Below, in pieces: positions 1 to 11,575 of a DNA stretch of 11,575 bases (within the stretch, counting starts at the first letter, position 1; each line of letters begins with the position of its first letter). The notes beneath the pieces were generated by a model. The model worked only from the letters and a program-made list of their open reading frames with translations. It made no database searches and was not told the DNA's origin. This DNA comes from a virus. Taxonomy: Duplodnaviria; Heunggongvirae; Uroviricota; Caudoviricetes. The DNA is taken from IMG/VR virus record IMGVR_UViG_2718217885_000003, positions 1 to 11,575 of that record; one strand, 5' to 3'. The position numbers were made by a program, and so were the translations under genes.

Positions 1-303
1 TTACTTCCTGCGTTTATCCCGCTTTGTATGTCCGTGCTGAATGCCCCGCAGTGGATCTTCTTTTTTCAGGTCGATCCCCATGTCCGTTAGTGTTTTTGTG
101 GCGGCGGTTCTTATGGCACAAATCAGGTCTCTTTCCGGTTCCCGGGTTATGGTTGCCTTCCGGATACATGCCGTTCGTCGTTCCGTTACATACTGACGCG
201 CTTCATCACTTGCCGCCTGTTTCAGTAACTCACCCCAGCGATTAGCCGCCCGTCGCCATAAACCTTTCGCTTCCAGTTCTTCCGCTTTGTCATCATGCAC
301 CAT
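1..303 (-). CDS. PerC-family-like transcriptional regulator (candidate), 100 aa
   Basis: Complete ORF with TAA at 1-3 on the minus strand. ATG at 303 has GGGA about 8 nt upstream; an alternative in-frame ATG is at 309. The N-terminal segment KAEELEAKGLWRRAANRW resembles the PerC/Pch signature as recalled; not verified by search. Confidence 0.45.
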   Translation of the reverse strand: MVHDDKAEELEAKGLWRRAANRWGELLKQAASDEARQYVTERRTACIRKATITREPERDLICAIRTAATKTLTDMGIDLKKEDPLRGIQHGHTKRDKRRK

Positions 304-417
304 AAGCATAATCCCATTGATACCTGTTAAATCTGAATGGTTGGTTTCTGTTCTTTTGATAATTTTCCGTATAGCTTATTGTATGACAGTACTGTCCCAC
401 AATAAGGAGTTGCACGC

Positions 418-714
418 ATGAGAATGACCAGGCACAAAAAGCAGATCCTTGAGTTCTATAAACCAGAGTTCCGCGATTGCGTTAGGTTGGATGCTGGAGA
501 ACCGCCTTTTGACGTTCGGGGGGTTTCTTCTCTGCTCTATGGAGACACTCTGCGCTACCACATCGAGGCAACACGACGAACGTTAAACGCTATGGTAAAT
601 GATGGGATCCTGTACCGCGTGAAAGTGCGCGAACCCCGCTTTGATGTGCGTATCGGTAGCGATGGCGCTCACTGTACGGTAATCCGGTACGGGCTGGGTA
701 AATCAGATGATTAA
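418..714 (+). CDS. hypothetical protein, 98 aa
   Basis: ATG at 418 preceded by AAGGAG with 8-nt spacing; stop TAA at 712-714. Divergent from the PerC-like gene. No family recognised. Confidence 0.6.
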   Translation: MRMTRHKKQILEFYKPEFRDCVRLDAGEPPFDVRGVSSLLYGDTLRYHIEATRRTLNAMVNDGILYRVKVREPRFDVRIGSDGAHCTVIRYGLGKSDD

Positions 715-719
715 ATCAC

Positions 720-816
720 CAGAATGTAAATTTACATTCTGCCAGCCACCAGCTACAGAACGCAAATTTGCACTTTGCTGAAATATTAACGGGTTAGGCC
801 AGAGTGCAAATTTGCA
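720..816. promoter_or_regulatory. three palindromes with an AAATTT core between convergent genes (candidate protein-binding sites or bidirectional stem-loops)
   Basis: Perfect palindromes CAGAATGTAAATTTACATTCTG (720-741), GCAAATTTGC (762-771) and TGCAAATTTGCA (805-816). None is followed by a clear U-run. Confidence 0.35.
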
Positions 817-837
817 TTATGCTTTAAGTTCAGCAAG

Positions 838-1119
838 TTACCGCCGTAACCGCTCCGGCTTCTTCCACTGGTACGTTATTTTTGCTTTTTCCCTGTACGT
901 CTGTATCCGGCGACGGTAGGCCAGCATTTCAAGAACGCGGATCCGTATGTCGCGCATATCAGTATCATTAAGCTGGATACCATCACGACGCATCACCTCA
1001 GCAACAACACGCGCATAATTTTCAGCGGTCACGCTGTCCGGCTGTGTGGCCTGTTCGTCGGCTTGCTGGCTGATTCCACCAGCACGGCGGAGTAATTCCA
1101 GTATTTCGGCTTCTGTCAT
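838..1119 (-). CDS. hypothetical protein, 93 aa (ORF extends to an upstream ATG at 1131)
   Basis: ATG at 1119 preceded by a GGGGGG run (1123-1128 on the complement) with about 4-nt spacing; the upstream ATG at 1131 lacks an SD. Stop TAA at 838-840 on the complement. No family recognised. Confidence 0.5.
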   Translation of the reverse strand: MTEAEILELLRRAGGISQQADEQATQPDSVTAENYARVVAEVMRRDGIQLNDTDMRDIRIRVLEMLAYRRRIQTYREKAKITYQWKKPERLRR

Positions 1120-1154
1120 TGTGCCCCCCATCGTTCTGGCTGTCTGGTGTCGTC

Positions 1155-1228
1155 GGGTCCTTCCTGGAATTATGGCCCGTTACGGGGCGGCGACCTCGCG
1201 GTTTTTCACTATTTATGAGATTTTTTAG
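1155..1228 (+). other. lambda-type cos site, copy A: cosQ-like GGGTCCTTCCTGG, then cosN with the 12-nt cohesive-end sequence GGGCGGCGACCT at 1185-1196
   Basis: 1179-1206 GTTACGGGGCGGCGACCTCGCGGTTTTT matches the phage lambda cos junction from memory and continues with CACTATTTATGAGATTTT (lambda: CGCTATTTATGAAAATTTT). It is a perfect inverted copy of 1799-1826. Confidence 0.7.
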
Positions 1229-1385
1229 GGGGTGGTTGTTGTTTAATTGTTTGTCATATCTATTTGATAACTAAGTAAAAATAGAGAGCAATACAACAAC
1301 CTGATAGTGTTTTTTGATGCTACAAATAAAAAAAATGCTAATTGAATCAAATAGTTTTACAAAAATACGTGGTTGTTGTATTGCG
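1229..1385 (+). repeat. cosB-like region of cos copy A: three GGTTGTTGT repeats (direct, inverted, direct) with an AT-rich spacer
   Basis: GGTTGTTGT at 1234-1242, ACAACAACC at 1293-1301 and GGTTGTTGT at 1371-1379; 1288-1301 and 1371-1384 form a perfect 14-bp inverted repeat. The layout parallels lambda R3-I1-R2-R1 at similar distances from cosN. Confidence 0.5.
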
Positions 1386-1433
1386 TATTTGATGGCGTAA
1401 CAGAAAGTGATTTTGAACTTTGCTGTTCTGTGA

Positions 1434-1643
1434 CTACTGATTGTTCCATGCTGGCGCGGCGAACGCTTCGGCATGACGCCACCCAGCCAGAAAACCAGCC
1501 ATTTTATTTCGTGCTTTGCTCACATCTTCCGGTGAGTAGCCGTAAATCTGTAAACCTTCATTGAATCGATGTTCTGTTTCTTCACTTGAGTACTCGTCGC
1601 TCTCCGATGAAATCAGCCTGGCAACTTCAGTCTGCGTAGCCAC
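1434..1643 (-). CDS. hypothetical small protein, 69 aa, in the position lambda Nu1 occupies relative to cos copy B; candidate packaging-redirection (Rpp-like) factor
   Basis: GTG start at 1643-1641 with GAGGTGAGGA immediately upstream; stop TAG at 1434-1436 on the complement. It begins about 180 nt after the cosN of copy B. No HTH or other recognisable motif; acidic stretch SSESDEYSSEETEH. Confidence 0.4.
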   Translation of the reverse strand: MATQTEVARLISSESDEYSSEETEHRFNEGLQIYGYSPEDVSKARNKMAGFLAGWRHAEAFAAPAWNNQ

Positions 1644-1666
1644 TCCTCACCTCACAATCACGACAA

Positions 1667-1772
1667 AACCGGTCATGTCCGGTTTACATGTCTATTTTTT
1701 GCGCATGTCCGGTTCATGGAAAGCCTATTTTTATATTTTTCATATAGTTAACTTGCAGAGAAACCGGACATG
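1667..1772 (-). repeat. cosB-like region of cos copy B: three CATGTCCGGTT repeats with an AT-rich spacer
   Basis: CATGTCCGGTT at 1674-1684 (inside the inverted repeat AACCGGTCATGTCCGGTT, 1667-1684) and at 1704-1714; inverted copy AACCGGACATG at 1762-1772. AT-rich block 1717-1760. Distances from cosN (about 49, 107 and 140 nt) resemble lambda R3/R2/R1. Confidence 0.5.
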
Positions 1773-1782
1773 GATCCCGGAA

Positions 1783-1852
1783 AATTTTCATAAATAGCGA
1801 AAAACCGCGAGGTCGCCGCCCCGTAACAGGTCCATATGCCGGAAAGGACCCG
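1783..1852 (-). other. lambda-type cos site, copy B (minus orientation): cosQ-like GGGTCCTTTCCGG, cosN cohesive-end sequence at 1810-1821
   Basis: The reverse complement of 1781-1852 reads GGGTCCTTTCCGGCATATGGACCTGTTACGGGGCGGCGACCTCGCGGTTTTTCGCTATTTATGAAAATTTTCCGG, near-identical to the lambda cos junction as recalled. It lies directly downstream of the capsid-operon terminator. Confidence 0.75.
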
Positions 1853-1853
1853 C

Positions 1854-1875
1854 AAAAAAGCCGGATTTCTCCGGC
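1854..1875 (-). terminator. rho-independent terminator of the capsid operon
   Basis: On the minus strand, GCCGGAGAAATCCGGC stem-loop followed by TTTTTT, immediately 3' of the CDS ending at 1882. Confidence 0.8.
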
Positions 1876-1881
1876 CTTGTC

Positions 1882-2295
1882 TCAGATGGTTTTCAGTATG
1901 CGATCAATGTCGCCGTCATCGCCCGGGTTTCTGCCATCGTATGCCATGCCAGCTGATACGGCTTGTGGGCTGTGCATGTCCATAAAGTTTTCAAAGGCTG
2001 CGGTAAGCTCTGGTGCAACCTTCTGGCGTTCCTGTTCTATGGTCATGTTCAGGATGTTTTTAGCCGTATCAACATCAATACAAGGCACGTTTGCCATTGC
2101 ACGTAACAGCGGCTGATAGTCGTCAGATTCATAAAGCGACATAATCGCATCAGCGCGCGGCTTGTCCTGTTCTTCCAGTTTGTTAAGTTGATATATAGCT
2201 TCGTAGGTTGATAGACATCTGTCAGCCATTGCCCGCGCTTCAGCTTTAAATTTACTCGCCAGCGGTAGCGCCATGATACTTTCATTCGTTGCCAT
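1882..2295 (-). CDS. hypothetical protein, 137 aa, last gene of the capsid operon (possible scaffold or size-determination factor; unassigned)
   Basis: ATG at 2295 preceded by GGGGGGAACG (strong SD); the longer track ORF to 2406 overlaps the upstream gene and lacks an SD. Acidic, helix-prone composition. No family recognised. Confidence 0.6.
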   Translation of the reverse strand: MATNESIMALPLASKFKAEARAMADRCLSTYEAIYQLNKLEEQDKPRADAIMSLYESDDYQPLLRAMANVPCIDVDTAKNILNMTIEQERQKVAPELTAAFENFMDMHSPQAVSAGMAYDGRNPGDDGDIDRILKTI

Positions 2296-2308
2296 CGTTC
2301 CCCCCTGC

Positions 2309-2644
2309 TTATCGCGCCAGCGGCTGAACAGATACACCAGAACCCGCAAAGGCGGCACATTTTTTCGCGTCGGTGTCGACGCTCTCAGGCCAGTTAACGG
2401 CGGCAATATTGAATATCCCCGTCTTGTAACACTGTGCTGATTTCTGCGTTGACGTGTCCACGGGATACGCCGTCAGATAAACAGCCTTGCCAGATTCCTG
2501 ACCATCCCACGGCTTAAATTCGCCATTGTCCGCCAGCATCAGCGGGGTAAATTCCTGAATAACGCCAGCATCAGCGGCAAAATGTACCAGCGTCGTGGCA
2601 ACCTGCTGACTGCCTGCAAATAACTCAATGTATGGAGTGTCCAT
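2309..2644 (-). CDS. head decoration protein, lambda gpD-like, 111 aa
   Basis: Segment TPLMLADNGEFKPWDG...CYKTGIFNIAAVNWPE...KKCAAFAGSGVSVQ parallels lambda gpD (TPLMLDTSSRKLVAWDG...FYKSGTFRYEDVLWPE...KKRTAFAGTAISIV, from memory). SD GGGGGA 5 nt upstream of ATG 2644. Confidence 0.8.
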   Translation of the reverse strand: MDTPYIELFAGSQQVATTLVHFAADAGVIQEFTPLMLADNGEFKPWDGQESGKAVYLTAYPVDTSTQKSAQCYKTGIFNIAAVNWPESVDTDAKKCAAFAGSGVSVQPLAR

Positions 2645-2655
2645 AGAATCCCCCG

Positions 2656-3711
2656 TTAACCAATTTTGACGGTAACAAATTTGCGAATATCTGCCGGAAC
2701 CGGCTGCGGTGCGCTGTGCGTCTGCACGTACTCAATCGCCGGATCGCCGTCCTCAATCCAGTTTTTCGGGTAAAACATGTTTTGCGTTGCGCCCGTTCTG
2801 ACCGCTTCCTGATCCATAATCGCACCATAGGCCACCAGCCCTTTATTGTTGGTGTTGCCCAGGACCAGCAAATCAGGCTCAAGGAAATATTTTTCGGTGC
2901 CGTCGCTGTCAGTGTATTTGCCGGAATAGACGATAAGGGCAATATCGCCCAGATATCCTTTAAAGCTCACCACTTCGCCCAGGTTTTTACAGGCCAGCTC
3001 TGCGGAGGACTCTGAACCACGGGAAAGATCGTACAGTTCGCGGAATTTTTTAAAGCTGCGTAACGTTCGCCATACCTCAGCGCCCATGATCATGACGTTG
3101 GCGGGGCAACCTGCTTGATCCGCATAAAGCTCGATATCATAGATTGGATCGTGGGTTTCTTTGTCCTGCTCGGACCATTTACGGCCTTTGGCCTGCTCTA
3201 TGATGTTTTTTTCCGGTATCTTCCAGTCGATTTCATAGCGTTCTATGCCTTCGCCCTCAATGATGTTTTTTCCGGTCGTTACCGCATTCACCGCCAGCCA
3301 TTCCACGCGCGCTTTAATCGCGTTTATCTGGCGGCGCATGTTGCCAGTAATCAGGCGCATACGGCGATAGGTTGGGTCATTAAGCTGTGCCGGATCTTCT
3401 CCAGCCATACGCATGATGGTTTTCGTTGGATCGATTTCGTGCTTCGGCTTCATGTATCCAGGTTTAATCGTGCTGGTTTCGTACCCTTTATCGCGCTGGA
3501 CCTGACTACCCACCATAGGCGAACAAAACGCCGACATCGTAACCTCTTCAATGTCCAGGGTGTCCAGCATGATGCTTTGGGTGTTGAATGTCGCCACGTT
3601 CGGGAAAAACAGCGTGGTAAACAGCGGACTGAATTTAAATTCCGCAATATCCCCGCGATTCAGGTACGCGAAAAGCTGGTTAGTGTTAAGTGCCGTTGCT
3701 TTGCCTGCCAT
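2656..3711 (-). CDS. major capsid protein, lambda gpE family, 351 aa
   Basis: Multiple conserved blocks versus lambda gpE (from memory): FKFSPLF..LFF, PGYMKPKHEIDP, EDPAQLNDPTYRRMRLITGNMR, WSEQDKETHDP, LRSFK, SRGSESSAEL..LGEVVSFKGYLGDIALIVYSGKY, LVLGNTNNKGL.AYG, YPKNWIEDGDPA. Start ATG overlaps the upstream stop (TAATG). Confidence 0.9.
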   Translation of the reverse strand: MAGKATALNTNQLFAYLNRGDIAEFKFSPLFTTLFFPNVATFNTQSIMLDTLDIEEVTMSAFCSPMVGSQVQRDKGYETSTIKPGYMKPKHEIDPTKTIMRMAGEDPAQLNDPTYRRMRLITGNMRRQINAIKARVEWLAVNAVTTGKNIIEGEGIERYEIDWKIPEKNIIEQAKGRKWSEQDKETHDPIYDIELYADQAGCPANVMIMGAEVWRTLRSFKKFRELYDLSRGSESSAELACKNLGEVVSFKGYLGDIALIVYSGKYTDSDGTEKYFLEPDLLVLGNTNNKGLVAYGAIMDQEAVRTGATQNMFYPKNWIEDGDPAIEYVQTHSAPQPVPADIRKFVTVKIG

Positions 3712-3917
3712 TATTCACCCCCATAATTTTTATGCATCCCAAGCGCCGCAAGTAAATAAGAGCGTACAAGTGAACCTATCGACGGCTCCGGCGTCATCAG
3801 CGGATCCAGTCCAGCCGCCACGCCAGCCTCATAGTTTTTTTTGTGGCGTTGCTTGAGCACCTCCACGATTTCGGGGCTTATGTACACCGAAACACCGCCT
3901 TTTTTCTCTTCAGCCAT
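3711..3917 (-). CDS. ribbon-helix-helix (CopG/Arc-like) DNA-binding protein, 68 aa, first gene of the capsid operon; putative regulator
   Basis: GVSVYISPEIVEVLKQ (beta strand plus helix A) and SIGSLVRSYLLAAL (helix B) fit the RHH pattern. ATG at 3917 with GAGG upstream; stop coupled to the capsid gene start. Confidence 0.5.
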   Translation of the reverse strand: MAEEKKGGVSVYISPEIVEVLKQRHKKNYEAGVAAGLDPLMTPEPSIGSLVRSYLLAALGMHKNYGGE

Positions 3918-3944
3918 AGTAAGAAATTCCTCTTTGACTTAAAA

Positions 3945-4005
3945 AATCATAACTGGATGTTCATCCAGTTATGATTATAATCATCATTGCATTTTATGCA
4001 ATGAT
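3945..4005. promoter_or_regulatory. operator-like palindromes overlapping a candidate sigma70 promoter for the capsid operon
   Basis: Perfect 32-bp palindrome AATCATAACTGGATG-TT-CATCCAGTTATGATT (3945-3976) and 23-bp palindrome ATCATTGCAT-TTT-ATGCAATGAT (3983-4005). Minus-strand TATAAT (complement of 3974-3979) and TTGCAT (complement of 3996-4001) with a 16-bp spacer overlap the two palindromes. Confidence 0.45.
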
Positions 4006-4080
4006 GTTGAGTTGTGTTGCAAATTATGAAATGATGATCCCGATCATGTGTGTCAGTGCACCAAAAAGCCTCATATGCAA

Positions 4081-4119
4081 AAGCCCGATAAGCCACCTCT
4101 GACCTTATCGGGCTTTTTT
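4081..4119 (+). terminator. rho-independent terminator (strong on plus strand, weaker on minus)
   Basis: AAGCCCGATAAG ... CTTATCGGGCTT, a 12-bp stem with an 11-nt loop, followed by TTTTTT on the plus strand. No annotated plus-strand gene lies upstream, which suggests a short plus-strand transcript from the 3920-4080 region. Confidence 0.6.
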
Positions 4120-4220
4120 ATCTGCCTGCAAAGATGTCGAACAAAAATTAACCGCAACCATCATCTTTTTTGCATCAAAACAATTAAAAACAATAAATTA
4201 CGCTCATGATGATGATGACG

Positions 4221-4292
4221 ATAAAATCACAAAAATGCGCTTTTTTCCGCGCCTCCCGCCCCGTGTTCAGGCCCACCCCGCCAGGAGGACCC
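4221..4292 (-). repeat. diverged third cos-like copy (cosQ-like GGGTCCTCCTGG retained, cosN core altered)
   Basis: Aligns base for base with the cos copy B region (GATAAAATCACAAAAATGCGC vs GGAAAATTTTCATAAATAGCG; CCCGCCCCGTGTTCAGG vs CGCCGCCCCGTAACAGG; GGAGGACCCG vs GAAAGGACCCG), but the cohesive-end segment is changed. It sits next to a homologous terminator. Confidence 0.5.
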
Positions 4293-4294
4293 GT

Positions 4295-4316
4295 AAAAAA
4301 GCCGGATTGCTCCGGC
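4295..4316 (-). terminator. rho-independent terminator after ssb
   Basis: On the minus strand, GCCGGAGCAATCCGGC followed by TTTTTT, 17 nt after the ssb stop. Sequence is homologous to the terminator at 1854-1875. Confidence 0.8.
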
Positions 4317-4332
4317 TTCTGTCACTCGTCGC

Positions 4333-4755
4333 TTAAAACGGTATGTTATCCCCGTACGGATCATCATTCCCCGCCTGTTGTTTTGCCCTGTTCAGCGCGT
4401 CAGTAGCCTGGCCCTGTTGACCTTTTTTGCCGCCCAGTCGCGCCGTTCGCGCACTGATTACACTGTCTGCGATAACCTGCCAGCCCTGCCGCGTTTCTCC
4501 GTTCTGCCCAGTCCACTGGCTGATCTGCATGTTACCCGCCACGCTCAGGAGTTCACCCTTGCGGTGCCTTTCCAGTGCTTCGGCCTGTCTGCCAAATGCC
4601 AGGACGGATAACCACATCGTCGCCGTTCCGTCATCTGCCTGGCTGCACGGAAGGGGGACCGCCATACGCGCCAGCGTCATCGGTGTGCCCTTGCTGGTCT
4701 GTTTTACCTGCGGGTCGTCCACCAGCCGCCCGTAAGCGGCTATCTGTGCTGTCAT
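4333..4755 (-). CDS. ssb: single-stranded DNA-binding protein, 140 aa
   Basis: OB-fold-like N-terminal region (GRLVDDPQV...MWLSVLAFGRQAE...KGELLSVAGNMQISQW...NGETR), Gly/Gln-rich linker, and C-terminal acidic tip DDPYGDNIPF resembling the SSB DDDIPF tail. ATG overlaps the upstream stop (ATGA). Confidence 0.7.
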   Translation of the reverse strand: MTAQIAAYGRLVDDPQVKQTSKGTPMTLARMAVPLPCSQADDGTATMWLSVLAFGRQAEALERHRKGELLSVAGNMQISQWTGQNGETRQGWQVIADSVISARTARLGGKKGQQGQATDALNRAKQQAGNDDPYGDNIPF

Positions 4756-5030
4756 GATTCCACCTCTCCGGTTTTAACGTTGATTGTTGTTACCTGTTCC
4801 GCTTCGGCAATCTCCCGCTCTGTCAGCGTGGCAAAATTTGCCGCCGTCGTGGTCATGAATGCGCTTATCAGGTCGGGATGTGCTTTCGCGTATCCTTCCC
4901 CCGCGTGGCGGTCTATCGTTCTGATTGCCACCTTTAAAGCGTGCTCTGTCATGTCTAACGCGCGATATTTCGGTTCTGTTCTGTCTCTGCGTTTTTTGAG
5001 TGATTTATTAAATTTCCCTGAAGTGTGCAT
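4752..5030 (-). CDS. hypothetical protein, 92 aa
   Basis: ATG at 5030 with GAGGGGG about 12 nt upstream. Translationally coupled to ssb. Located just downstream of the iteron origin. Confidence 0.5.
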   Translation of the reverse strand: MHTSGKFNKSLKKRRDRTEPKYRALDMTEHALKVAIRTIDRHAGEGYAKAHPDLISAFMTTTAANFATLTEREIAEAEQVTTINVKTGEVES

Positions 5031-5078
5031 ATTTATTTTTACCCCCTCGTTTAAAAAGTTTTGAGTTGTGCCTCCCCT

Positions 5079-5306
5079 TGTCTACCTTATCTACCTTAGT
5101 GGCCCTCATGCCAGTAATGGCGCGGCTTTCAGCGGGGTAGAGTGCTTTTATCCACTATCTACCCCGTGTCTACCTCCCTGTCTGATTCAGGTAAAATCAG
5201 GTAGAGAGGGTAGATAGTGGGTAGACAGTAAAAAAAGGCTATCTACCTAACTTAATGCACTGAATTAAATTTATTTTTCTTTACTCAGGTAGACAGGGTA
5301 GACAGC
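5079..5306. repeat. iteron array, candidate replication origin, immediately 3' of the primase gene
   Basis: At least 11 copies of GGTAGA(C/T)AG and its complement in both orientations (for example 5081-5089, 5090-5098, 5134-5142, 5156-5163, 5168-5175, 5200-5205, 5209-5216, 5219-5228, 5241-5248, 5288-5296, 5297-5305), with AT-rich blocks at 5250-5285 and 5306-5330. Confidence 0.7.
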
Positions 5307-5318
5307 AATTACAAAAAA

Positions 5319-7073
5319 TTATAAAAACGCGTCGCACTCGTCTGTTGTTATTGCGTTAGTCTGCGTTACTCCCTTAACTTTCCGCGTAATATATTCATGT
5401 CCGTAAACTTTCGCGGCTGGCTTCATAGCCTTGCCAAAGTCATTTACGTTTAGCGGTTTGCTCCTGCCTGCGTACGCCATAAACGCCAGATAGACGCGGT
5501 AAAGGCTGTTTCTGGTCGTGTACTTCACTGAATCGCCACCGCCGCCCATCATCAGGCCGCGTGCTTCCTCCAGAAAATTCAGGAACTGGCAAAACTCAAT
5601 AACCGGATCCGTCTGTTGCTTTATTGCCAGAGCTTCATCACCGTCACGCTGTTCCAGTAGTAAAGCCCGTGCCTTCTCAGGGTCGGTAAAGTTCGCCAGC
5701 AATCGGCGGATAATGACAGGGATTTCAGCCGCGATCTTTTCCGGTAGCTCCCTGTCTTTTTCGGCCTCACTGACGATATTGTCGAAACGGAAAATCACGC
5801 GACGACGTGCCACACCTCCGGCCCGTTCGGTGAATATCATCGGGTTATTGTTGGTCGCCAGCACCACCGCCCTGATTACAGCCGTGAAACGCTTTTCGTA
5901 TTTCGGGTTAATTTCCACGGGGTCACCGCCCGTGATTTTCTTGATGCCCGTTCCTTCGCCTGTATATTTCGGCTGGTCAGCCAGGACGATAAGACGACTC
6001 CCGACAACCTGCGCACGTCCACCAGCATCATCAAGCGACGTCATTTCAGCGCTTACCGTGTTCTGTTTCCCTGCCAGAAGGCTGGCTATGTGCGTGAATG
6101 TACTTTTACCGCTCCCGCCATCTCCGGTGGCCTCAATAAACATCTGCCAGTCGTACCGGTTCGCCATAATCATGTACAGCGCGGCACATATACGCATCAT
6201 CTTGCGCGGGTCTTTTCCGGCTGCGTGCTCAAGCCATTTATGAAAGTTTGGCGCGTTATCGCGGATGTTCTCCCCTGGTGCTGGTGGCGTGTACTCAATG
6301 CCGTTGTGCGTGGTGATCCAGTTCTCCGGCGTGTGCGGGGAAAATTCCCCCGTTTTCAGGTCAAGCGCACCATTGGCGAACGGCAGCAAATCGCCGGACG
6401 GCTCGCCCATTGGTTCGGCAATAACTTTTAACGCTTCCACGGCGTTATTGATTACGCGCTTGCTGAAAGTGGCCCTGTGCTCTGAATAGATCGCCACCAT
6501 TTCGCGGCTAAGTTCCATTGTGCTGACCGGACACCATACCCCGCCGCGCCATACGTGAACGATTTCACTTTCAGGATGTACGCAAACGCCATCAAAGCGA
6601 TCGGCAAGCAGCTGCGCGCGTTCACTGTCCGCCATCTGCGAAAGTTGCGCCTTTTGCTTTACCGGAAGCTCAATGACCAGACCATCAGAAAGATTCTGGC
6701 GCTCACGGGCCAGATATTCGCGCCAGTTCTCCACCTTCTGACCGTGCATACCATCAGGGTAAAAATTTGCATCCTGTACGCCTGCCGCCGCCAGCTTCTG
6801 GCCAATCGCCTTTATCATTACTGGCGCAAGATATCCGGCCCTGTATATGCGTGCTGATTTTCGGCCTTCCGGCACAATTTGCAGATTATCCAGTTCGGAT
6901 AGCTGCTGCTCCCCAAGCCACACAGGAGGCTCATTATCTCCGGCCATACGCGCATCATGTTCCTGCCATTGTTTCGCGTGTGACCAGGCATCACTACCCG
7001 CAAAAATAATGACTTCTGTTTCTTTGTGTTTTATGCCGCGTGACTGCTGTTTTACGTTCGGTGCCAGTTTCAT
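5319..7073 (-). CDS. primase/helicase-type replication initiator (P4 alpha / PICI Pri-Rep-like), 584 aa
   Basis: Walker A GDGGSGKST and Walker B-like LIVLAD in the C-terminal half; N-terminal primase-like region. Followed by the iteron array. ATG overlaps the upstream stop (ATGA). Confidence 0.85.
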   Translation of the reverse strand: MKLAPNVKQQSRGIKHKETEVIIFAGSDAWSHAKQWQEHDARMAGDNEPPVWLGEQQLSELDNLQIVPEGRKSARIYRAGYLAPVMIKAIGQKLAAAGVQDANFYPDGMHGQKVENWREYLARERQNLSDGLVIELPVKQKAQLSQMADSERAQLLADRFDGVCVHPESEIVHVWRGGVWCPVSTMELSREMVAIYSEHRATFSKRVINNAVEALKVIAEPMGEPSGDLLPFANGALDLKTGEFSPHTPENWITTHNGIEYTPPAPGENIRDNAPNFHKWLEHAAGKDPRKMMRICAALYMIMANRYDWQMFIEATGDGGSGKSTFTHIASLLAGKQNTVSAEMTSLDDAGGRAQVVGSRLIVLADQPKYTGEGTGIKKITGGDPVEINPKYEKRFTAVIRAVVLATNNNPMIFTERAGGVARRRVIFRFDNIVSEAEKDRELPEKIAAEIPVIIRRLLANFTDPEKARALLLEQRDGDEALAIKQQTDPVIEFCQFLNFLEEARGLMMGGGGDSVKYTTRNSLYRVYLAFMAYAGRSKPLNVNDFGKAMKPAAKVYGHEYITRKVKGVTQTNAITTDECDAFL

Positions 7074-7369
7074 TTTTTACCCCTGAATCCTTTAATCATG
7101 GTTTTCATCTTCTGAATATTGGCGCGTGCTTTCTCCCTGCTGGTTGGTTTACTGCGGGGCGCTGCCTGTACCAGAGAAAAATCACGCCGGAACTGATAAA
7201 CAGGCATCACGCAATCATATTCGTAACCTTCACGGCGGTAAGTTACGCACCGTCCCGCCACGCCCTTAATCATTACCGTGCCGCCGTACTGGTCGCGGTA
7301 AATATCACCGCGCGTAAATTTAGGGTGAGTGTTGCCACTGGCAGTTAAGCCAGAATATTTAAGTTTCAT
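7070..7369 (-). CDS. hypothetical protein, 99 aa
   Basis: ATG at 7369 with GGAG upstream; coupled to the primase start. Shares the N-terminal pentapeptide THPKF, encoded by an identical 16-nt DNA segment, with the gene at 7909-8277. Confidence 0.55.
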   Translation of the reverse strand: MKLKYSGLTASGNTHPKFTRGDIYRDQYGGTVMIKGVAGRCVTYRREGYEYDCVMPVYQFRRDFSLVQAAPRSKPTSREKARANIQKMKTMIKGFRGKK

Positions 7370-7447
7370 TATTTTTATTCTCCGGTGTGCTGTTCTTTAT
7401 ATCTGTCGTGCAATGTTTCTATTTCCTGCGATTCATTTATTACAGGC

Positions 7448-7687
7448 TCAAGAAGCGTTATTAATGCCGCGACAATTCGGGATTTTTCTTAAATCGACTT
7501 CTGCCACATATTCCGCATAATCAGCGGTGATATTTAGTACATCAAACCCCGTTGTTTTATTTTCTTTCGTGCCAAGTAAGAAAAAGGCCGCTCTTATCAG
7601 TTCGGATATTGACGAAAGCGCATCACTCGCATCATCAGATACGCCGGAAAATTCCTGTTTCAGGAAATTAAAACGATCATCACGCAT
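7448..7687 (-). CDS. hypothetical protein, 79 aa
   Basis: ATG at 7687-7685 directly preceded by a G8 run acting as an SD-like element; overlaps the stop of the upstream gene by 8 nt (ATGCGTGA). The track ORF extends to a TTG at 7714. Confidence 0.45.
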   Translation of the reverse strand: MRDDRFNFLKQEFSGVSDDASDALSSISELIRAAFFLLGTKENKTTGFDVLNITADYAEYVAEVDLRKIPNCRGINNAS

Positions 7688-7919
7688 AACCCCCCCCATT
7701 TTCACAATCAGCAATCAGGATGGCTTTAGCCTCATTCAGTGCCATTTCAGCGGTAAGCTGTGCGTAGGCCAGCGAATGGGGGATTATTGCCCCTGTATAT
7801 TCCGGCTCTCTGGTAATGTGTTTTTCTGCGGTTGCTGCCGTGCATGAAATATCAATCAGCGCATCCATCAGCGTTTTGATGGCTTCGGCGGCTGCGTCCG
7901 GACGGGGGTTATTGCACAT
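7680..7919 (-). CDS. hypothetical protein, 79 aa
   Basis: ATG at 7919 with AGGAGG 7 nt upstream; overlaps the 3' end of the upstream gene by 11 nt. Confidence 0.55.
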   Translation of the reverse strand: MCNNPRPDAAAEAIKTLMDALIDISCTAATAEKHITREPEYTGAIIPHSLAYAQLTAEMALNEAKAILIADCENGGGYA

Positions 7920-8277
7920 GGCGCACCTCCTGACGAATACGGGCGGCGAATACCATCACGCAGCCAGCCGGGGATTGCTGGCGGGCTTCCTGTTCGCTGG
8001 TGGCCTCAATGGTAATCACGCGCGGTTGTGCCGTGCTCAGGGCGATAAAACGCCAGATAAAATTGTTTTCGCATTTCTGAATAAACAACGTGTTTTCTTC
8101 GCGCCCTTTCCATGTTGCCGAGATATAGCCCATGTCATTGAGCATCTCGCAGGCATCAACCAGCGTATCGGCGGCTACATGTACAGTGTTTTTACCGTCA
8201 GCTATGCAATCACGGTGCACCGCCAGGAAGGTGTATATAAATTTAGGGTGAGTTTGGGTATGCTGTGTTCCAGCCAT
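7909..8277 (-). CDS. hypothetical protein, 122 aa, first gene of the replication operon
   Basis: ATG at 8277 with AGGAG 8 nt upstream. It is the 3' part of a spurious 562-aa track ORF (7909-9597) whose upstream portion is antisense to the plus-strand cassette. Confidence 0.6.
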   Translation of the reverse strand: MAGTQHTQTHPKFIYTFLAVHRDCIADGKNTVHVAADTLVDACEMLNDMGYISATWKGREENTLFIQKCENNFIWRFIALSTAQPRVITIEATSEQEARQQSPAGCVMVFAARIRQEVRHVQ

Positions 8278-8306
8278 AATCGTTACTCCTATTAACGGTT
8301 TGGTTA

Positions 8307-8448
8307 GAAGCCCCGTTACTGCTCCAACAGTGCGGGGCTTCGTCGTTTCAATTGCTGAATTGCATGTATCAGCCCTTGTGGTATTCAGATTACATTTTGG
8401 TGAATACCATTTCAAGTCTTTTTTGGTATTCACTTTTGTATTACACTG
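8307..8448. promoter_or_regulatory. divergent control region: stem-loop plus TGGTATTCA repeats
   Basis: Stem-loop GAAGCCCCG...CGGGGCTTC at 8307-8341. TGGTATTCA at 8379-8387 and 8425-8433, with inverted copy TGAATACCA at 8401-8409 (9-bp inverted repeat, 13-bp spacer). Lies between divergent genes starting at 8277 (minus) and 8477 (plus). Confidence 0.4.
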
Positions 8449-8476
8449 CATCCCGTTATTAATCGGAGGTGCAAAC

Positions 8477-8782
8477 ATGTCCACGAGTTCTGTTAACAAT
8501 AAATCACAGCAACTGAATGCCAGATTTCCACATGAAGTAGTGAGTGGCATTGAGGCATCCCTACAGCCAGGGGAAACTAAAGCGAATTTTATAGTTACGG
8601 CTGTACGCGGTGAGATCGCCCGCCGCCAGGCAGAAGGAAGCGGAGAAAACCCCCTGGTTTCTTCGCTCGATGCACTGGCGCAGGTGGAAAAAATCGGAGT
8701 CAAAGCTGCCGAGGAGATCGGGCAGCTCGTCACCGTCGCACGTGAAGAACTACAGCGCCGCAAGGCCAAAGAATCAGAATAA
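8477..8782 (+). CDS. ribbon-helix-helix-like DNA-binding protein, 101 aa, first gene of the counter-oriented cassette
   Basis: ATG at 8477 with GGAGGTG 7 nt upstream; double stop TAATAA. QLNARFPHEVVSGIEASL ... TKANFIVTAVRGEIARRQ fits a strand-helix-helix pattern. The longer track ORF from 8300 has no SD. Confidence 0.55.
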   Translation: MSTSSVNNKSQQLNARFPHEVVSGIEASLQPGETKANFIVTAVRGEIARRQAEGSGENPLVSSLDALAQVEKIGVKAAEEIGQLVTVAREELQRRKAKESE

Positions 8783-8839
8783 TAACTATCATCGCCGTGG
8801 TGTGAGGAACTCCGGCGCATTGCTTTACAGGTACACAGA

Positions 8840-9022
8840 ATGACCAACAACGAATCAACCAATACACCATCACCGGCACGGAAAAGACAGCGCAGAAAGA
8901 TAGCGCATGAGCATGAGTCAGAAAGATTCGCACCATGTGCTTTTGCTCTTGAGAAATTCCTAAAAGAGTACAGGAAAACGCGCCCATTGCAGGTATGGCA
9001 ACGTAACGAACAAAAAGGTTGA
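8840..9022 (+). CDS. hypothetical small basic protein, 60 aa
   Basis: ATG at 8840 with AGGT about 7 nt upstream. Lys/Arg-rich. Same reading frame as the two following small ORFs. Confidence 0.35.
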   Translation: MTNNESTNTPSPARKRQRRKIAHEHESERFAPCAFALEKFLKEYRKTRPLQVWQRNEQKG

Positions 9023-9025
9023 TGT

Positions 9026-9157
9026 ATGACCAGGAAGCAGACAGATAACAAACCATTGCTACCAGAGAATAAATCAGCGGGATTTTTACCGGAAAAAGTG
9101 CTACATGAGCTAAAATTCCGCCAGCGTAAAAAATCCAAAGAAACAGACAAAGAATAA
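9026..9157 (+). CDS. hypothetical small basic protein, 43 aa (below the ORF-track size cutoff)
   Basis: ATG at 9026, 3 nt after the TGA of the preceding ORF (TGATGTATG), same frame; ends TAA at 9155-9157. Translation read manually: MTRKQTDNKPLLPENKSAGFLPEKVLHELKFRQRKKSKETDKE. Confidence 0.25.
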   Translation: MTRKQTDNKPLLPENKSAGFLPEKVLHELKFRQRKKSKETDKE

Positions 9158-9160
9158 CTT

Positions 9161-9325
9161 ATGCACCAAATACTATACTGGCTCGGATCTCTGTTTGTAT
9201 TTGCATTTCTCATGAAATATTGCATTAGCAATGAACCTGCCGACAATGAAAGTACATGCGGGAGTGCTGAAAAAGATATTCCACCTCTCGTATATGAAAA
9301 TGAAAGCCCTGTGCACCGCAATTGA
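9161..9325 (+). CDS. hypothetical small membrane peptide, 54 aa (single predicted transmembrane helix)
   Basis: ATG at 9161, 3 nt after the preceding TAA, same frame. Manual translation MHQILYWLGSLFVFAFLMKYCISNEPADNESTCGSAEKDIPPLVYENESPVHRN has a 19-residue hydrophobic N-terminal segment. A terminator follows at 9423-9450. Confidence 0.3.
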   Translation: MHQILYWLGSLFVFAFLMKYCISNEPADNESTCGSAEKDIPPLVYENESPVHRN

Positions 9326-9422
9326 GCGAAATTTAATGAATTCACTCTTTGCCCACCAGCCGCAAATGTGGCATTGTTGGCAATGCTCATGCGTTGGGGA
9401 TAACGTGTAGCTTGTGTCGAAT

Positions 9423-9450
9423 GGCCACCGTAGCAGGTGGCCTTTGTTTT
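9423..9450 (+). terminator. rho-independent terminator of the plus-strand cassette
   Basis: GGCCACC-GTAGCA-GGTGGCC followed by TTTGTTTT. Confidence 0.75.
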
Positions 9451-9488
9451 GCCTGTTATCCGGCAATTGTGGCGCTTCGTCACACGGT

Positions 9489-9574
9489 TGATATAATTCC
9501 CCTGCACTGATCCATTTTTTTCGCAGCAGGTTAATTGTTCACAAGGGCGCTCCGGCAACGGGGCGCTTTTTGTT
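9489..9574 (+). ncRNA. candidate small RNA (about 70 nt) between an extended -10 promoter and a second plus-strand terminator, opposite the 3' end of alpA
   Basis: TGATATAAT (9489-9497) fits the extended -10 pattern TGnTATAAT. Terminator GCGCTCCG-GCAA-CGGGGCGC plus TTTTTGTT at 9547-9574. No ORF of meaningful length between them. Confidence 0.2.
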
Positions 9575-9601
9575 ATGTTCATTGCGTTACACCTCACACC
9601 A

Positions 9602-9808
9602 TTACGCAGCCGTTCCGCGCGCTTCTTCCTCGCGTTCTTTCAACCAGGCCCGCACCTCATCTTCATACCAGCCAACACGGCGCAGACCGATTTTGAAGCC
9701 TTTCGGGAATTTTCCGGCGTTGATCATGTCCTGTAGCGAACTGTCTGCCTTGATGCGCAGAATATTTTTTACTTCCTGACGGGTAAGAATTTTTCTGATT
9801 ACTTCCAT
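9602..9808 (-). CDS. alpA: AlpA-family (Phage_AlpA, MerR-like HTH) transcriptional regulator/excisionase-like protein, 68 aa
   Basis: LTRQEVKNILRIKADSSLQDMINAGKFPKGFKIGLRRVGWYEDEVRAWL matches the AlpA pattern (HTH, then K/R-rich wing ending in W-x-x-E-V-x-x-W). Sits between int and the replication operon. Confidence 0.85.
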   Translation of the reverse strand: MEVIRKILTRQEVKNILRIKADSSLQDMINAGKFPKGFKIGLRRVGWYEDEVRAWLKEREEEARGTAA

Positions 9809-9850
9809 CGTGTTTTACCTCGTTAATCCGGCGTATTCCGGTGATAAATA

Positions 9851-9913
9851 CGGTAAAACAGGGCAGGGCGGGAAAAACAGTACTCACCGTTTTAAAACGG
9901 TACTCACTGTTTT
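9851..9913. promoter_or_regulatory. direct repeats and palindrome upstream of alpA (candidate operator/promoter elements)
   Basis: GTACTCAC(C/T)GTTTT at 9880-9893 and 9900-9913 (20-bp periodicity); perfect palindrome CCGTTTTAAAACGG at 9887-9900; related CGGTAAAACAGG at 9851-9862. Confidence 0.35.
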
Positions 9914-9942
9914 TTATCTCATTGATTACGCTTTCTTTTTGC

Positions 9943-9972
9943 AAAAAAATAGCGACCGCAAGGGGCCGCTAT
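9943..9972 (-). terminator. rho-independent terminator after the int-proximal small ORF
   Basis: On the minus strand, ATAGCGGCC-loop-GGTCGCTAT (9 bp with one G-U pair) followed by TTTTTTT, starting 6 nt after the stop at 9978. Confidence 0.65.
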
Positions 9973-9977
9973 TGTGA

Positions 9978-10220
9978 TTACCGTTTCCACTTCTTAGGTC
10001 GCCCACCACATTTAAGGCTGGTGGGCCTCAGCACCTTGTCGATGCTTTCAGCCAGATTTTTCGATGCGCCACGCGAGCGTAAAAAACTGACTACCTCGTG
10101 TTTTGTGGGGGCTGTTGATTTGTCTTCCGGATCGTATGTTGACCAGAATTCACGATTTGCCATTAACGCCAGTTGCAGCCCTTCACCGCAGACATTGGAT
10201 GATTTTTCGTGCCAGACCAT
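9978..10220 (-). CDS. hypothetical protein, 80 aa, between int and alpA
   Basis: ATG at 10220 with a weak SD; an internal ATG (MANREF...) is an alternative start. A dedicated terminator directly downstream supports expression. No family recognised. Confidence 0.45.
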   Translation of the reverse strand: MVWHEKSSNVCGEGLQLALMANREFWSTYDPEDKSTAPTKHEVVSFLRSRGASKNLAESIDKVLRPTSLKCGGRPKKWKR

Positions 10221-10333
10221 TTCAATAAATCTCGATTTCTCATGAGTCGGGTTTTTCCTTGTCTGTTGAGGAGATCGGCGATTATACGATGGTTTAGCAT
10301 GGTTTGCACTGGTTGTACTGGTTTTTTGTACAG

Positions 10334-11575
10334 TTACACCGCACGGATACCCCTTTTACCACTGGCTATGGTCACTCCGGTTGCTGCGGCTTCCACAAAT
10401 TCACCCCACCAGCGCATAAGTACTACACGTTTTTCCAGGTAGTTACTTCGGTTATATGCCCGCCTTACCTCGTTCGTGTCCACGTGTGCGAGCGCGGCCT
10501 CGATTACGTCCGGCTCGAATCCTTCCTCGTTCGCTGCTGTGCTGAATATGGCGCGTAATCCGTGAGACACCAGCACACCAGCGTAACCCATCCGGCGCAA
10601 TGCGGCGTTAGCGGTCTGGCTGCTCATTGGCAGCATCGGGTTTTTAAGGCTGGGAAAAACGTGTTCTCTGTGTGCGCTGATTGGCTTCATGGTTTCCAGT
10701 ACAGCCATAGCCTGACCACAAAGGGGGATCACATGGTCACGGCGCATCTTCATGCGTCCGGCTGGAATCGTCCAGGTTTCGGCATCGAGATCTATTTCTT
10801 CCCAGCGTGCGGCGGCTGCTTCGGCTGGGCGTGCTACGGTCAGCAGTTGCCACTCAATCAGCAATCTGGTTTGCCGTTCTATGCTGGCGACCGATAAATC
10901 GTGCATTAGCTGCGGTAGCTGTTCCGGTCGGATGGTTGGCATGTGCTTTTTGGTGGGTGAGGGGAATGCCTTGCGGACGTTCGCGGCGGTGTTGATGTCA
11001 ATCAGCCCACTGTTGGCAGCAAAATCCATCACTTCATTGATGCGTTGTAAAACGCGTTTCAGGGTTTCCAGGTTGCCGCGTACTTTAATGGGTGTGAGTA
11101 TCTCAACAAAGCGGCGAGCGGTGAGGGTATCTATTGGCGTGTTTCCGATGTACGGGAATACGTATTTTTCCAGGGAACGCCAGATATCCTTAATCGTGTT
11201 GTAAGCCAGATTCTGGCCTTTTTTCATCTCGTACCAGTCCGAGGCAACTTTCTCGAACGTGTTGCCCTTTTTTCGGCTCTCTGCTTCACGTTTCCGGCGT
11301 TCGTGGTCCTGTGGGTCAGTTCCCTTTGCTATGAGTGACCTGTATTCATTCCGTCGCTCTCTGGCATCAGACAGGGAAACATCATTCAGCGATCCAAGGC
11401 TGATAATAGTCCGTTTTTTATCTGCCGGACGGTAGTACGTAAAACGCCAGATTTTTGATCCGGAGGGCTTCACCAGAAGAAATAATCCTCCGCCATCCTG
11501 CAGGGTGTATTCCTTTTCCCCTGGTCGTGCGTTTTTGATCTCCGTAATAGTTAGTGGGGTGGTTTTTCGTGCCAT
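10334..11575 (-). CDS. int: tyrosine site-specific integrase, P4/CP4-57 type, 413 aa
   Basis: N-terminal arm-binding region (GEKEYTLQDGGGLFLLVKPSGSKIWRFTYY) and C-terminal catalytic residues (ARPAE Arg, HGLRAIFST His-x-x-Arg, LAHV His, RRAYNRSNY Tyr). The start codon is the last triplet of the window, so the true start could lie further upstream outside it. Confidence 0.95.
   Translation of the reverse strand: MARKTTPLTITEIKNARPGEKEYTLQDGGGLFLLVKPSGSKIWRFTYYRPADKKRTIISLGSLNDVSLSDARERRNEYRSLIAKGTDPQDHERRKREAESRKKGNTFEKVASDWYEMKKGQNLAYNTIKDIWRSLEKYVFPYIGNTPIDTLTARRFVEILTPIKVRGNLETLKRVLQRINEVMDFAANSGLIDINTAANVRKAFPSPTKKHMPTIRPEQLPQLMHDLSVASIERQTRLLIEWQLLTVARPAEAAAARWEEIDLDAETWTIPAGRMKMRRDHVIPLCGQAMAVLETMKPISAHREHVFPSLKNPMLPMSSQTANAALRRMGYAGVLVSHGLRAIFSTAANEEGFEPDVIEAALAHVDTNEVRRAYNRSNYLEKRVVLMRWWGEFVEAAATGVTIASGKRGIRAV

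Follow-up and report, generated by a model that had tools for sequence, protein, structure and literature searches.

A conserved ylcI unit and a long antisense open frame between alpA and icd in an AlpA-type phage-inducible chromosomal island of Escherichia coli

Gram-negative phage-inducible chromosomal islands (PICIs) occur widely and move virulence and defence genes. Their induction needs AlpA, and whether a global repressor exists has been described as "unclear" (PMC6092414). The closest described arrangement to the one reported here is the leader of the left operon of P4, which contains vis (an alpA homologue), eta, inside which kil is nested, as well as the CI RNA/seqA immunity elements, and in which translation prevents termination (Forti et al. 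1999, as summarised in PMC10111431). We analysed a DNA stretch of 11,575 nucleotides (nt) from IMG/VR record IMGVR_UViG_2718217885_000003 (positions 1 to 11,575; this whole stretch is referred to as the window), which is an AlpA-type Gram-negative PICI of E. coli. Between alpA and an icd-like gene, its plus strand carries four open reading frames (ORFs), ylcI, o60, o43 and o54, which lie antisense to a long stop-free frame designated ORF-X. The antisense open frame is strongly supported, and the region appears to be a conserved switch module. The explanation that we favour, with moderate confidence, is that the plus-strand unit is a conserved regulatory operon and not cargo, and that it lies antisense inside a leader frame that would be translated in the manner of P4.

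ORF-X resembles the P4 leader in two respects: (i) it begins, with its own start codon, right after an alpA-type gene and lies between alpA and the primase operon, and (ii) its 3′ end contains, in frame, a shorter gene that has a start codon to itself (this is kil in P4 and, in the window, the icd-like gene, which is preceded by AGGAG). It differs in holding a complete operon of opposite orientation, two terminators and a promoter/operator region, an arrangement not described for P4. Furthermore, immunity in the window island appears to be protein-based (YlcI and its putative operators). Among approximately 100 related loci fetched for comparison (labelled in the style L001), four (L005, L039, L054 and L088) carry C4 and isrK RNAs as well as a Phage_ASH domain in the long frame, at a point between ylcI and icd (on the minus strand of L005, C4 with 80.9 bits and isrK with 59.6 bits, at 897-984 and 1009-1085). 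The frame of these relatives is therefore regarded as a homologue of P4 eta, and a P4-type RNA immunity element is combined there with the YlcI unit.

Two phage immunity regions offer further parallels. In the immI operon of P1/P7 (c4-icd-ant), translation of icd is needed for transcription of ant, and the C4 RNA blocks icd, which leads to Rho-dependent termination. The window island likewise has an Icd-like gene first in its early operon, and translation of an upstream ORF would license downstream transcription; in contrast to P1/P7, it has no C4 RNA, its upstream ORF is far longer, and only the C-terminal motif of Icd (NF033153) is common to both. The immI region of P22 comprises the ribbon-helix-helix (RHH) repressors Mnt and Arc, the divergent, overlapping promoters Pant and Pmnt, and the sar antisense RNA. 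Shared with the window, where repressor and operators are putative, are a small repressor gene divergent from the early operon, operators over back-to-back promoters and antisense or convergent transcription as a putative part of the control; no sequence homology connects the two, the RHH fold of YlcI is unconfirmed, and the Rfam match of sar to the leader hairpin is insignificant (E=3.9).

YlcI (DLP12) and YnfO (Qin) of the lambdoid prophages of E. coli K-12 share with the island protein an N-terminal domain of 42 residues, above the curated NF041551 cut-off, whereas the island form of 101 amino acids (aa) adds a long C-terminal helix. The K-12 genes sit near the terminase genes of their prophages, and to our knowledge neither product has a known function. 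Finally, in the divergent Stl/Str switch of Staphylococcus aureus pathogenicity islands (Gram-positive PICIs; PMC6092414), a master repressor gene is directed away from the replication operon, a placement and a logic that the ylcI unit would share; the protein is unrelated, and induction of Gram-negative PICIs proceeds via AlpA.

The ylcI unit and its operator-like repeats

A preliminary description of this DNA, made from its sequence, had recognised a counter-oriented unit with its own Shine-Dalgarno (SD) sequence and terminator between alpA and the replication genes. This holds, and reading of the sequence also bore out the ORF coordinates, the codon counts (60, 43 and 54), the joints, the SD sequence and the terminator (9423-9450). 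The description had mentioned neither a second terminator (9543-9575) nor that ylcI is in the frame of the three small ORFs. Contrary to what had been stated, the unit is not the only one on the plus strand of the island: RefSeq annotates another plus-strand coding sequence at approximately 418-714 of the window. The plus frame itself is not unusually open, with seven stops in the 819 nt after ylcI, compared with 8 and 19 in the other plus-strand frames.

The product of ylcI belongs to the YlcI/YnfO family. Its N-terminal domain (residues 9-50) scored 60.3 bits against NF041551 (cut-off 30; E=1.3e-16), and the protein matched phrog_6522 over its full length (E=1e-46) and, in addition, phrog_949; 128 relatives were found in Enterobacterales. 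The gene begins with the ATG at 8477 and ends with a double stop (TAA-TAA, 8780-8785), which is not conserved among relatives. Both ylcI and o60 are found between alpA and icd in EcCICFT073 and Nissle 1917 as well as in the fetched loci; they belong to the core of the AlpA-type Gram-negative PICIs, EcCICFT073 included.

The 200-nt intergenic region between ylcI and icd has a fixed architecture in six genera. Nine alleles of the N-terminal segment of YlcI were distinguished, each accompanied by its own repeat of 7-10 nt, e.g. TGGTATTCA (the window), TGTAAG/CTTACA, TGTGATT/AATCACA, TGAAACACAC and GGAATCCA. Relative to the ylcI ATG, the repeats keep to positions -98, -74, -53 and -29, of which three or four are occupied per locus, and they are allele-specific across all nine alleles, while the flanking -35/-10 cores are invariant. 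Thus, a change in the recognition segment of YlcI goes with a change in the promoter-region repeats, as expected of a repressor with cognate operators. This co-variation points to a specific repressor-operator pair that would control both divergent promoters, with YlcI as the probable sequence-specific repressor of the island.

Both cores of the putative icd promoter, TTGA and TAAT, are kept in all variants, and its spacer varies with the ylcI allele; a consensus promoter scan did not call this promoter. The sole sigma-70-like site that the scan returned (CTCACA, 16 nt, TATTAT; minus strand, 8779-8806) lies over the ylcI double stop, inside ORF-X. The leader of icd contains a conserved hairpin, for which eight pairs were predicted, seven of them with compensatory changes (RNAalifold, 14 loci from 6 genera). 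In Pectobacterium/Dickeya loci (L007-L011, L014, L016 and L017, at approximately 3600-4200), a divergent icd/ylcI pair with three direct GTGAATCGCAC repeats was observed and no alpA was detected; in L009 and L010 an integrase gene adjoins the pair.

The antisense frame ORF-X

The minus strand is free of stops in one frame from 9639 to 7912 (576 codons). Within this run, ORF-X is antisense, successively, to the terminators T2 and T1, o54, o43, o60, ylcI and the promoter/operator region, and then passes in frame into the Icd-like gene. Between 8278 and 9581, this frame has no stop, compared with 24 and 25 stops in the other two minus-strand frames. The significance of this openness was estimated with a null model that resampled synonymous codons, so that the plus-strand proteins stayed the same, and applied a mononucleotide shuffle to the non-coding parts. 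The mean number of stops was 12.65 (n=3000), and none of the 3000 sequences was stop-free. When the approximately 510 nt outside the plus-strand ORFs were considered alone, again 0 of 3000 shuffles were stop-free; for the coding parts alone, with the plus-strand proteins fixed, the antisense frame was stop-free in 2% of resamplings.

The frame is also maintained in relatives. Where alpA is adjacent, the frame of ORF-X has 0-1 stops, compared with 2-18 in the others. It was recovered in 89 unique relatives with a median length of 388 codons, running in frame to the icd stop in 77 of them and ending at the icd start in five. A tblastn comparison of ORF-X with phage genomes gave matches to its Icd-like end only. 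Six unrelated types of alpA junction were found; each has an ATG 9-58 nt downstream of the alpA stop, with a clear SD sequence in three of them. A GC hairpin, which corresponds to the plus-strand terminator, directly follows the ATG in types A, B, E and F; in types C and D it comes after the alpA stop and ahead of the ATG. Moreover, the distance from an anchor at the 3′ end of ylcI to the TATAAT box takes 14 different lengths (136-745 nt), 11 of which equal 1 modulo 3, so that the frame is kept; two of the three exceptions (207 and 576) are each 1 nt short of an observed in-frame length.

From the coordinates, the plus-strand ORFs and ORF-X share third codon positions. In this phase, a stop can arise on either strand only where the other has a Tyr, His or Gln codon together with a particular neighbouring wobble base, so both strands can be kept open by synonymous choice. 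This arrangement accounts for the common reading frame of ylcI, o60, o43 and o54, because only the phase that shares wobble positions with ORF-X keeps both strands open. Locking to the ORF-X frame likewise accounts for the spacing between ylcI and o60 of 180, 183 or 186 nt.

Proposed switch and alternative explanations

The following sequence of events would be consistent with these data. At rest, YlcI would bind the three repeats at 8379-8432, over its own promoter and over that of the leftward operon from icd to primase, and the island would be quiet. The ylcI gene would be co-transcribed with o60, which encodes a conserved basic protein, and in the window island also with o43 and o54; the small ORFs would probably be translated by termination-reinitiation at their 3-nt joints, and transcription would end at T1, with T2 as a second stop. 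On induction by a helper, AlpA would boost its own transcript. By analogy with P4, ribosomes leaving alpA would then start on ORF-X and translate across the region, shielding the RNA from premature (Rho-type) termination, so that, even with the repressor present, the induced transcription could continue into icd and the replication genes; the ORF-X product itself seems not to matter. The convergent ylcI transcript, and maybe an RNA of ~70 nt from the TGATATAAT box, would be complementary to the ORF-X mRNA and not to that of alpA, and could oppose leaky read-through. Tentatively, we extend this to a view in which some 1.1-1.3 kb are translated on both strands and the strands form opposing arms of an induction switch, with YlcI as master repressor of AlpA-type Gram-negative PICIs (in at least nine immunity specificities, with small partner proteins) on one and, on the other, a "ribosome-shield" ORF that would serve solely by being translated, and with convergent transcription and antisense RNA setting the threshold.

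Several observations weigh against the favoured explanation. Concerning the antisense frame, (i) ORF-X of the window contains neither Phage_ASH (PF10554) nor a C4/isrK RNA (down to E=10), the Rfam searches (the window at E<=1; 8200-9650 at E<=10) having returned only sub-threshold terminator look-alikes (isrD, sar and RsaJ), (ii) 1-nt deletions break the frame in L038 and L084, (iii) in the Pectobacterium/Dickeya elements the antisense frame extends for only ~100-115 codons, apart from 244 codons in L008, and (iv) the minus-strand RNA shows no marked richness in C (GC skew about 0) and has no evident Rho utilisation (rut) signal. On the plus strand, the SD sequences ahead of o60, o43 and o54 are weak, and changes at third positions of o60 are in a mere 1.4-fold excess. 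Counts of substitutions in the o60 region (synonymous/non-synonymous, 360/456 vs 401/476; wobble changes silent on a single strand, 69 vs 77) do not separate the two strands, because both frames share wobble positions.

To these points may be added the searches for the fold of YlcI. The preliminary description had named the first gene an RHH gene; that it encodes a small protein of the DNA-binding type stood, and the fold was not confirmed. No RHH-clan match exceeded its threshold (the best in Pfam was PSK_trans_fac, 16.8 bits against a cut-off of 28.3, which was also sub-threshold in 10 of 16 relatives), and Foldseek comparison of an AlphaFold2 (AF2) model with PDB gave no match below E=1. 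A profile search of solved structures in PDB returned no RHH protein, and only a weak helix-hairpin-helix-like match to Hef (E=0.17). The AF2 model (monomer only; predicted local distance difference test score 77 with a 41-sequence alignment, 65 with the single sequence) has helices at residues 19-28 and 35-52, in the places of the RHH helices, and a low-confidence helix with no strand in the N-terminal segment. An RHH fold is thus plausible but not confirmed. Literature searches on YlcI/YnfO function and on an RHH repressor of PICIs returned nothing relevant. The C-terminal half (residues 55-101; 8639-8779) is predicted with high confidence to form one long helix and occurs only in the 101-aa form, being absent from short forms of 59-61 aa; the weak match to the C-terminus of Hef falls in this half.

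According to one alternative, which we consider unlikely, the plus-strand unit is real and the antisense frame is an untranslated, functionless by-product of plus-strand coding and composition. Of the antisense phases, the one with shared wobble positions is by nature the least prone to stops, and for the coding parts 2% of resamplings were stop-free. In addition, the predicted ORF-X product has an odd composition (13% Ser, 6.2% Cys) and shows no conservation at the protein level (changes in 9345-9575 lack 3-periodicity, numbering 39, 31 and 36 by phase), and the frame is broken in two relatives, as noted above. Such a by-product does not explain why the non-coding portion was never stop-free in shuffles, why an ATG follows alpA at six unrelated junctions with the frame kept over 11 insert lengths, why in 82 of the 89 unique loci the frame runs into icd or ends at its start, or why some variants show homology to P4 eta.

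An equally doubtful alternative accepts a translated antisense frame and regards ylcI as the sole plus-strand gene; the ORFs of 60, 43 and 54 codons would be "shadow" ORFs of that frame, and the RNA downstream of ylcI a long 3′ untranslated region or an antisense RNA. It draws on the weak SD sequences, the low third-position excess and the equal substitution counts on both strands given above. Furthermore, o43 and o54 have no family matches (for o43, in Pfam, NCBIfam and PHROG), both are dispensable in most islands, and PGAP leaves o54 unannotated. The plus frame itself is not unusually open, with seven stops in the 819 nt after ylcI, compared with 8 and 19 in the other plus-strand frames.

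The behaviour of o60 argues against such shadows. It follows ylcI in most relatives, and most islands carry it without the other two. All 29 unique variants have kept their own ATG and their own stop, with lengths of 57-76 codons, despite four unrelated C-terminal tails, and the core FxPCxFALExFLK survives in the most divergent copy, in which 51 of 141 nt differ. Amino acid replacements are more conservative in the plus frame (mean BLOSUM -0.10) than in the antisense frame (-1.09), and over 8500-9300 the plus strand is A-rich (AT skew +0.2 to +0.42), opposite to the flanks and in the manner of a coding strand. A diverged copy of o43 behind another upstream gene in L101 retains GFLPxKxLxExKxRQRKKSK, although its N-terminal third is largely rewritten. 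The sole relative of o54, P0001 (54 aa, 81% identical), occupies the same position in L101-L106, and all 15 nt differences between these alleles, which are 9% apart, fall outside the hydrophobic segment. Overall, the signs of selection on the small ORFs are weak, and their translation is predicted from sequence; the suggestion of coupled micro-proteins, made in the preliminary description, remains viable.

The L101-L106 group departs from this arrangement. At 2680-3165, a different protein of 64 aa (FHMRIVPELKEQF...), which looks RHH-like, replaces ylcI and o60 ahead of the diverged o43 copy (o43′) and o54. It is joined to o43′ by an identical GGYTGATGTATG junction (Y = C or T), including the TGA-TGT-ATG joint, which suggests a recombination joint. 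The antisense frame of this group is open for 381 codons.

It had further been suggested that the position and orientation of the cassette fit cargo such as a toxin-antitoxin, exclusion or defence function. In a fuller form of this reading, the accessory module would be the cassette or at least its o43-o54 part; o54 would act as a small membrane toxin, and the upstream DNA-binding protein would be the antitoxin or a regulator. We judge this improbable. In its favour, o43 is confined to a subset of loci and o54 to the window island, L003 and the L101-L106 group; the site lies in a zone of Gram-negative PICIs known to be "dynamic" (PMC10111431). Small RHH-type proteins often head toxin-antitoxin operons. 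The N-terminus of o54 is, as the preliminary description had it, transmembrane-like, albeit borderline (best 17-residue Kyte-Doolittle mean 1.61, from residue 4), and this segment is the one perfectly conserved between the alleles. Against it, none of the three small ORFs has a toxin or defence match in PADLOC, Pfam, NCBIfam or PHROG, ylcI and o60 are core genes, and ylcI and its putative operators co-vary in islands without o43 and o54, so ylcI is not dedicated to these two. The co-variation of ylcI with the adjacent promoter repeats is the behaviour of a switch repressor rather than of cargo.

The remaining proposal, a single gene of approximately 160 aa broken by two nonsense mutations or read through at its stops, is highly improbable: the common frame and the 3-nt gaps (TGA-TGT-ATG between o60 and o43, TAA-CTT-ATG between o43 and o54) that prompted it are explained by antisense locking, which ylcI obeys as well, and the comparison of orthologues and the searches with individual and concatenated translations recommended at the time revealed conserved stops (in relatives of 78-85% aa identity) and conserved separate starts, which speak against recent nonsense mutations, modules that occur independently (mostly o60 alone; o43′-o54 behind another gene in L101) and no intact longer gene, the concatenate of o43 and o54 having only another 54-aa protein as its relative and no longer homologue among 5.8 billion proteins. 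Therefore, o43 and o54 are optional, separable modules and not pieces of one broken gene.

If the favoured explanation, a regulatory operon antisense inside a translated leader, is correct, several consequences would follow. A repressor candidate with allele-specific operators makes the question of a PICI repressor directly testable, and allele-specific pairing of YlcI with its operators would explain the independence of co-resident islands. The long antisense frame would extend the P4 mechanism, in which the leader is translated to avoid termination, to a large island family. The region would also be a comparative case, with unusually good support, in which a complete operon lies antisense within a putatively translated ORF, and would be relevant to the discussion of bacterial genes that overlap in antisense. 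Annotation is affected too, since PGAP currently gives one strand only or, in other genomes, labels parts of ORF-X as an "Icd-like protein" pseudogene or an "ash family protein".

Features of the region and island setting

The coordinates of the features are listed in Table 1.

Table 1. Features of the window between the icd-like gene and int
Feature	Position	Strand	Support and remarks
Icd-like gene, 122 aa	7909-8277	-	ATG 8277, own AGGAG SD; NF033153 E=4e-22; PGAP annotation
ORF-X, eta-like frame	7909-9582	-	557 codons from ATG 9582, 20 nt past the alpA stop; SD GAGG 9595-9592, 9 nt upstream; ends at icd stop
icd-leader hairpin	8307-8341	-	conserved, 9-bp arms, followed by invariant motif TCTAACCA; RNAalifold
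Operator-like repeat O1, TGGTATTCA	8379-8387		overlaps -10/+1 of putative icd promoter; inverted/direct repeats
Putative icd-operon promoter	8387-8415	-	-35 TTGAAA 8415-8410, 17-nt spacer, -10 TAATCT 8392-8387; conserved TTGA/TAAT cores
Operator-like repeat O2, TGAATACCA	8401-8409		inverted; in spacer of putative icd promoter
Operator-like repeat O3, TGGTATTCA	8424-8432		in spacer of putative ylcI promoter
Putative ylcI promoter, -10	8442-8447	+	TACACT (TATACT in most relatives); conserved block tgtgTAtacTG ~30 nt upstream of ATG
SD of ylcI	8465-8469	+	GGAGG; read from sequence
ylcI, small DNA-binding protein of YlcI/YnfO family, 101 aa	8477-8782	+	NCBIfam NF041551; phrog_6522; PGAP name "YlcI/YnfO family protein"
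o60, small basic protein, 60 aa	8840-9022	+	TGA stop; isoelectric point 10.4; core ERFAPCAFALEKFLKEYR; phrog_21027 E=9e-17; PGAP WP_071961361.1
o43, optional lysine-rich ORF, 43 aa	9026-9157	+	TAA stop; start 3 nt past o60 stop; PGAP WP_256142062.1
o54, rare optional ORF, 54 aa	9161-9325	+	acidic tail; unannotated by PGAP; relative P0001
Conserved 3′ block with terminator T1	9345-9450	+	stem 9423-9442, T-run to 9450; terminator scan
Candidate promoter, TGATATAAT	9489-9497	+	perfect extended -10; near-invariant box
Terminator T2	9543-9575	+	12-bp stem and T-run; terminator scan; covariation in L024 and L053
alpA, 68 aa	9602-9808	-	Pfam Phage_AlpA E=7e-9; stop 20 nt before ORF-X ATG
80-aa ORF	9978-10220	-	between int and alpA
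int	10334-11575	-	ORF list/profile matches

The 3′ block is kept behind differing upstream ORFs, and the stem of T1 shows compensation (GGCCACC/GGTGGCC to GGCGACC/GGTCGCC); a stable small RNA might be derived from the ylcI transcript at its 3′ end. T1 together with the preceding sequence (9406-9448) resembles the Salmonella island small RNA isrD below threshold (22.4 bits against 37). On the minus-strand RNA, T2 corresponds to a hairpin that begins ~9 nt past the ORF-X ATG. The TGATATAAT box is intact in 22 of 23 unique sequences, with variable flanks, L053 carrying TGATATAAC. Purely as a hypothesis, this box could drive an RNA of ~70 nt that ends at T2 and is antisense to the 5′ end of ORF-X; the candidate had no Rfam family match, and RNAalifold did not support an upstream/5′ stem-loop.

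The window was assigned to the AlpA-type Gram-negative PICIs of E. coli from its ORFs and Pfam matches, with int, alpA, a primase/replication module and late genes in one orientation; its gene layout, size (~10-15 kb) and chromosomal integration are those of the group. The order of genes on the minus strand is int, alpA, the region of the ylcI cassette, icd-like, DUF4222, primase (D5-type), ssb, capsid-related genes and a PerC-family gene. Its layout is co-linear with that of the model island EcCICFT073, as well as with those of islands in Nissle 1917 and O157:H7. It is 99.97% identical to an island adjoining rclA and rclB in E. coli MFDS1022581 (100% over 8300-9600). Matches to the cassette region were found in 1362 of 5426 complete E. 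coli genomes, and only two of them contain at least 80% of the segment 8790-9460.

The window differs from RefSeq NZ_CP169399.1 solely at three homopolymer runs (at 2360, 2650 and 6102), each longer by one base in the window; the added bases restore the head-decoration and primase ORFs that PGAP flagged as frameshifted in NZ_CP169399.1. An Rfam search did not detect the int-alpA RNA (RF02996) between int and alpA of the window; this RNA adjoins the integrase gene in L009 (1847-1913) and L015 (7057-7125). Just downstream of the primase gene (5151-5232) lies a large imperfect inverted repeat with reiterated CTACC/GGTAG, which surfaced as a spurious Rfam match to mir-135 and plausibly constitutes the replication origin of the island.

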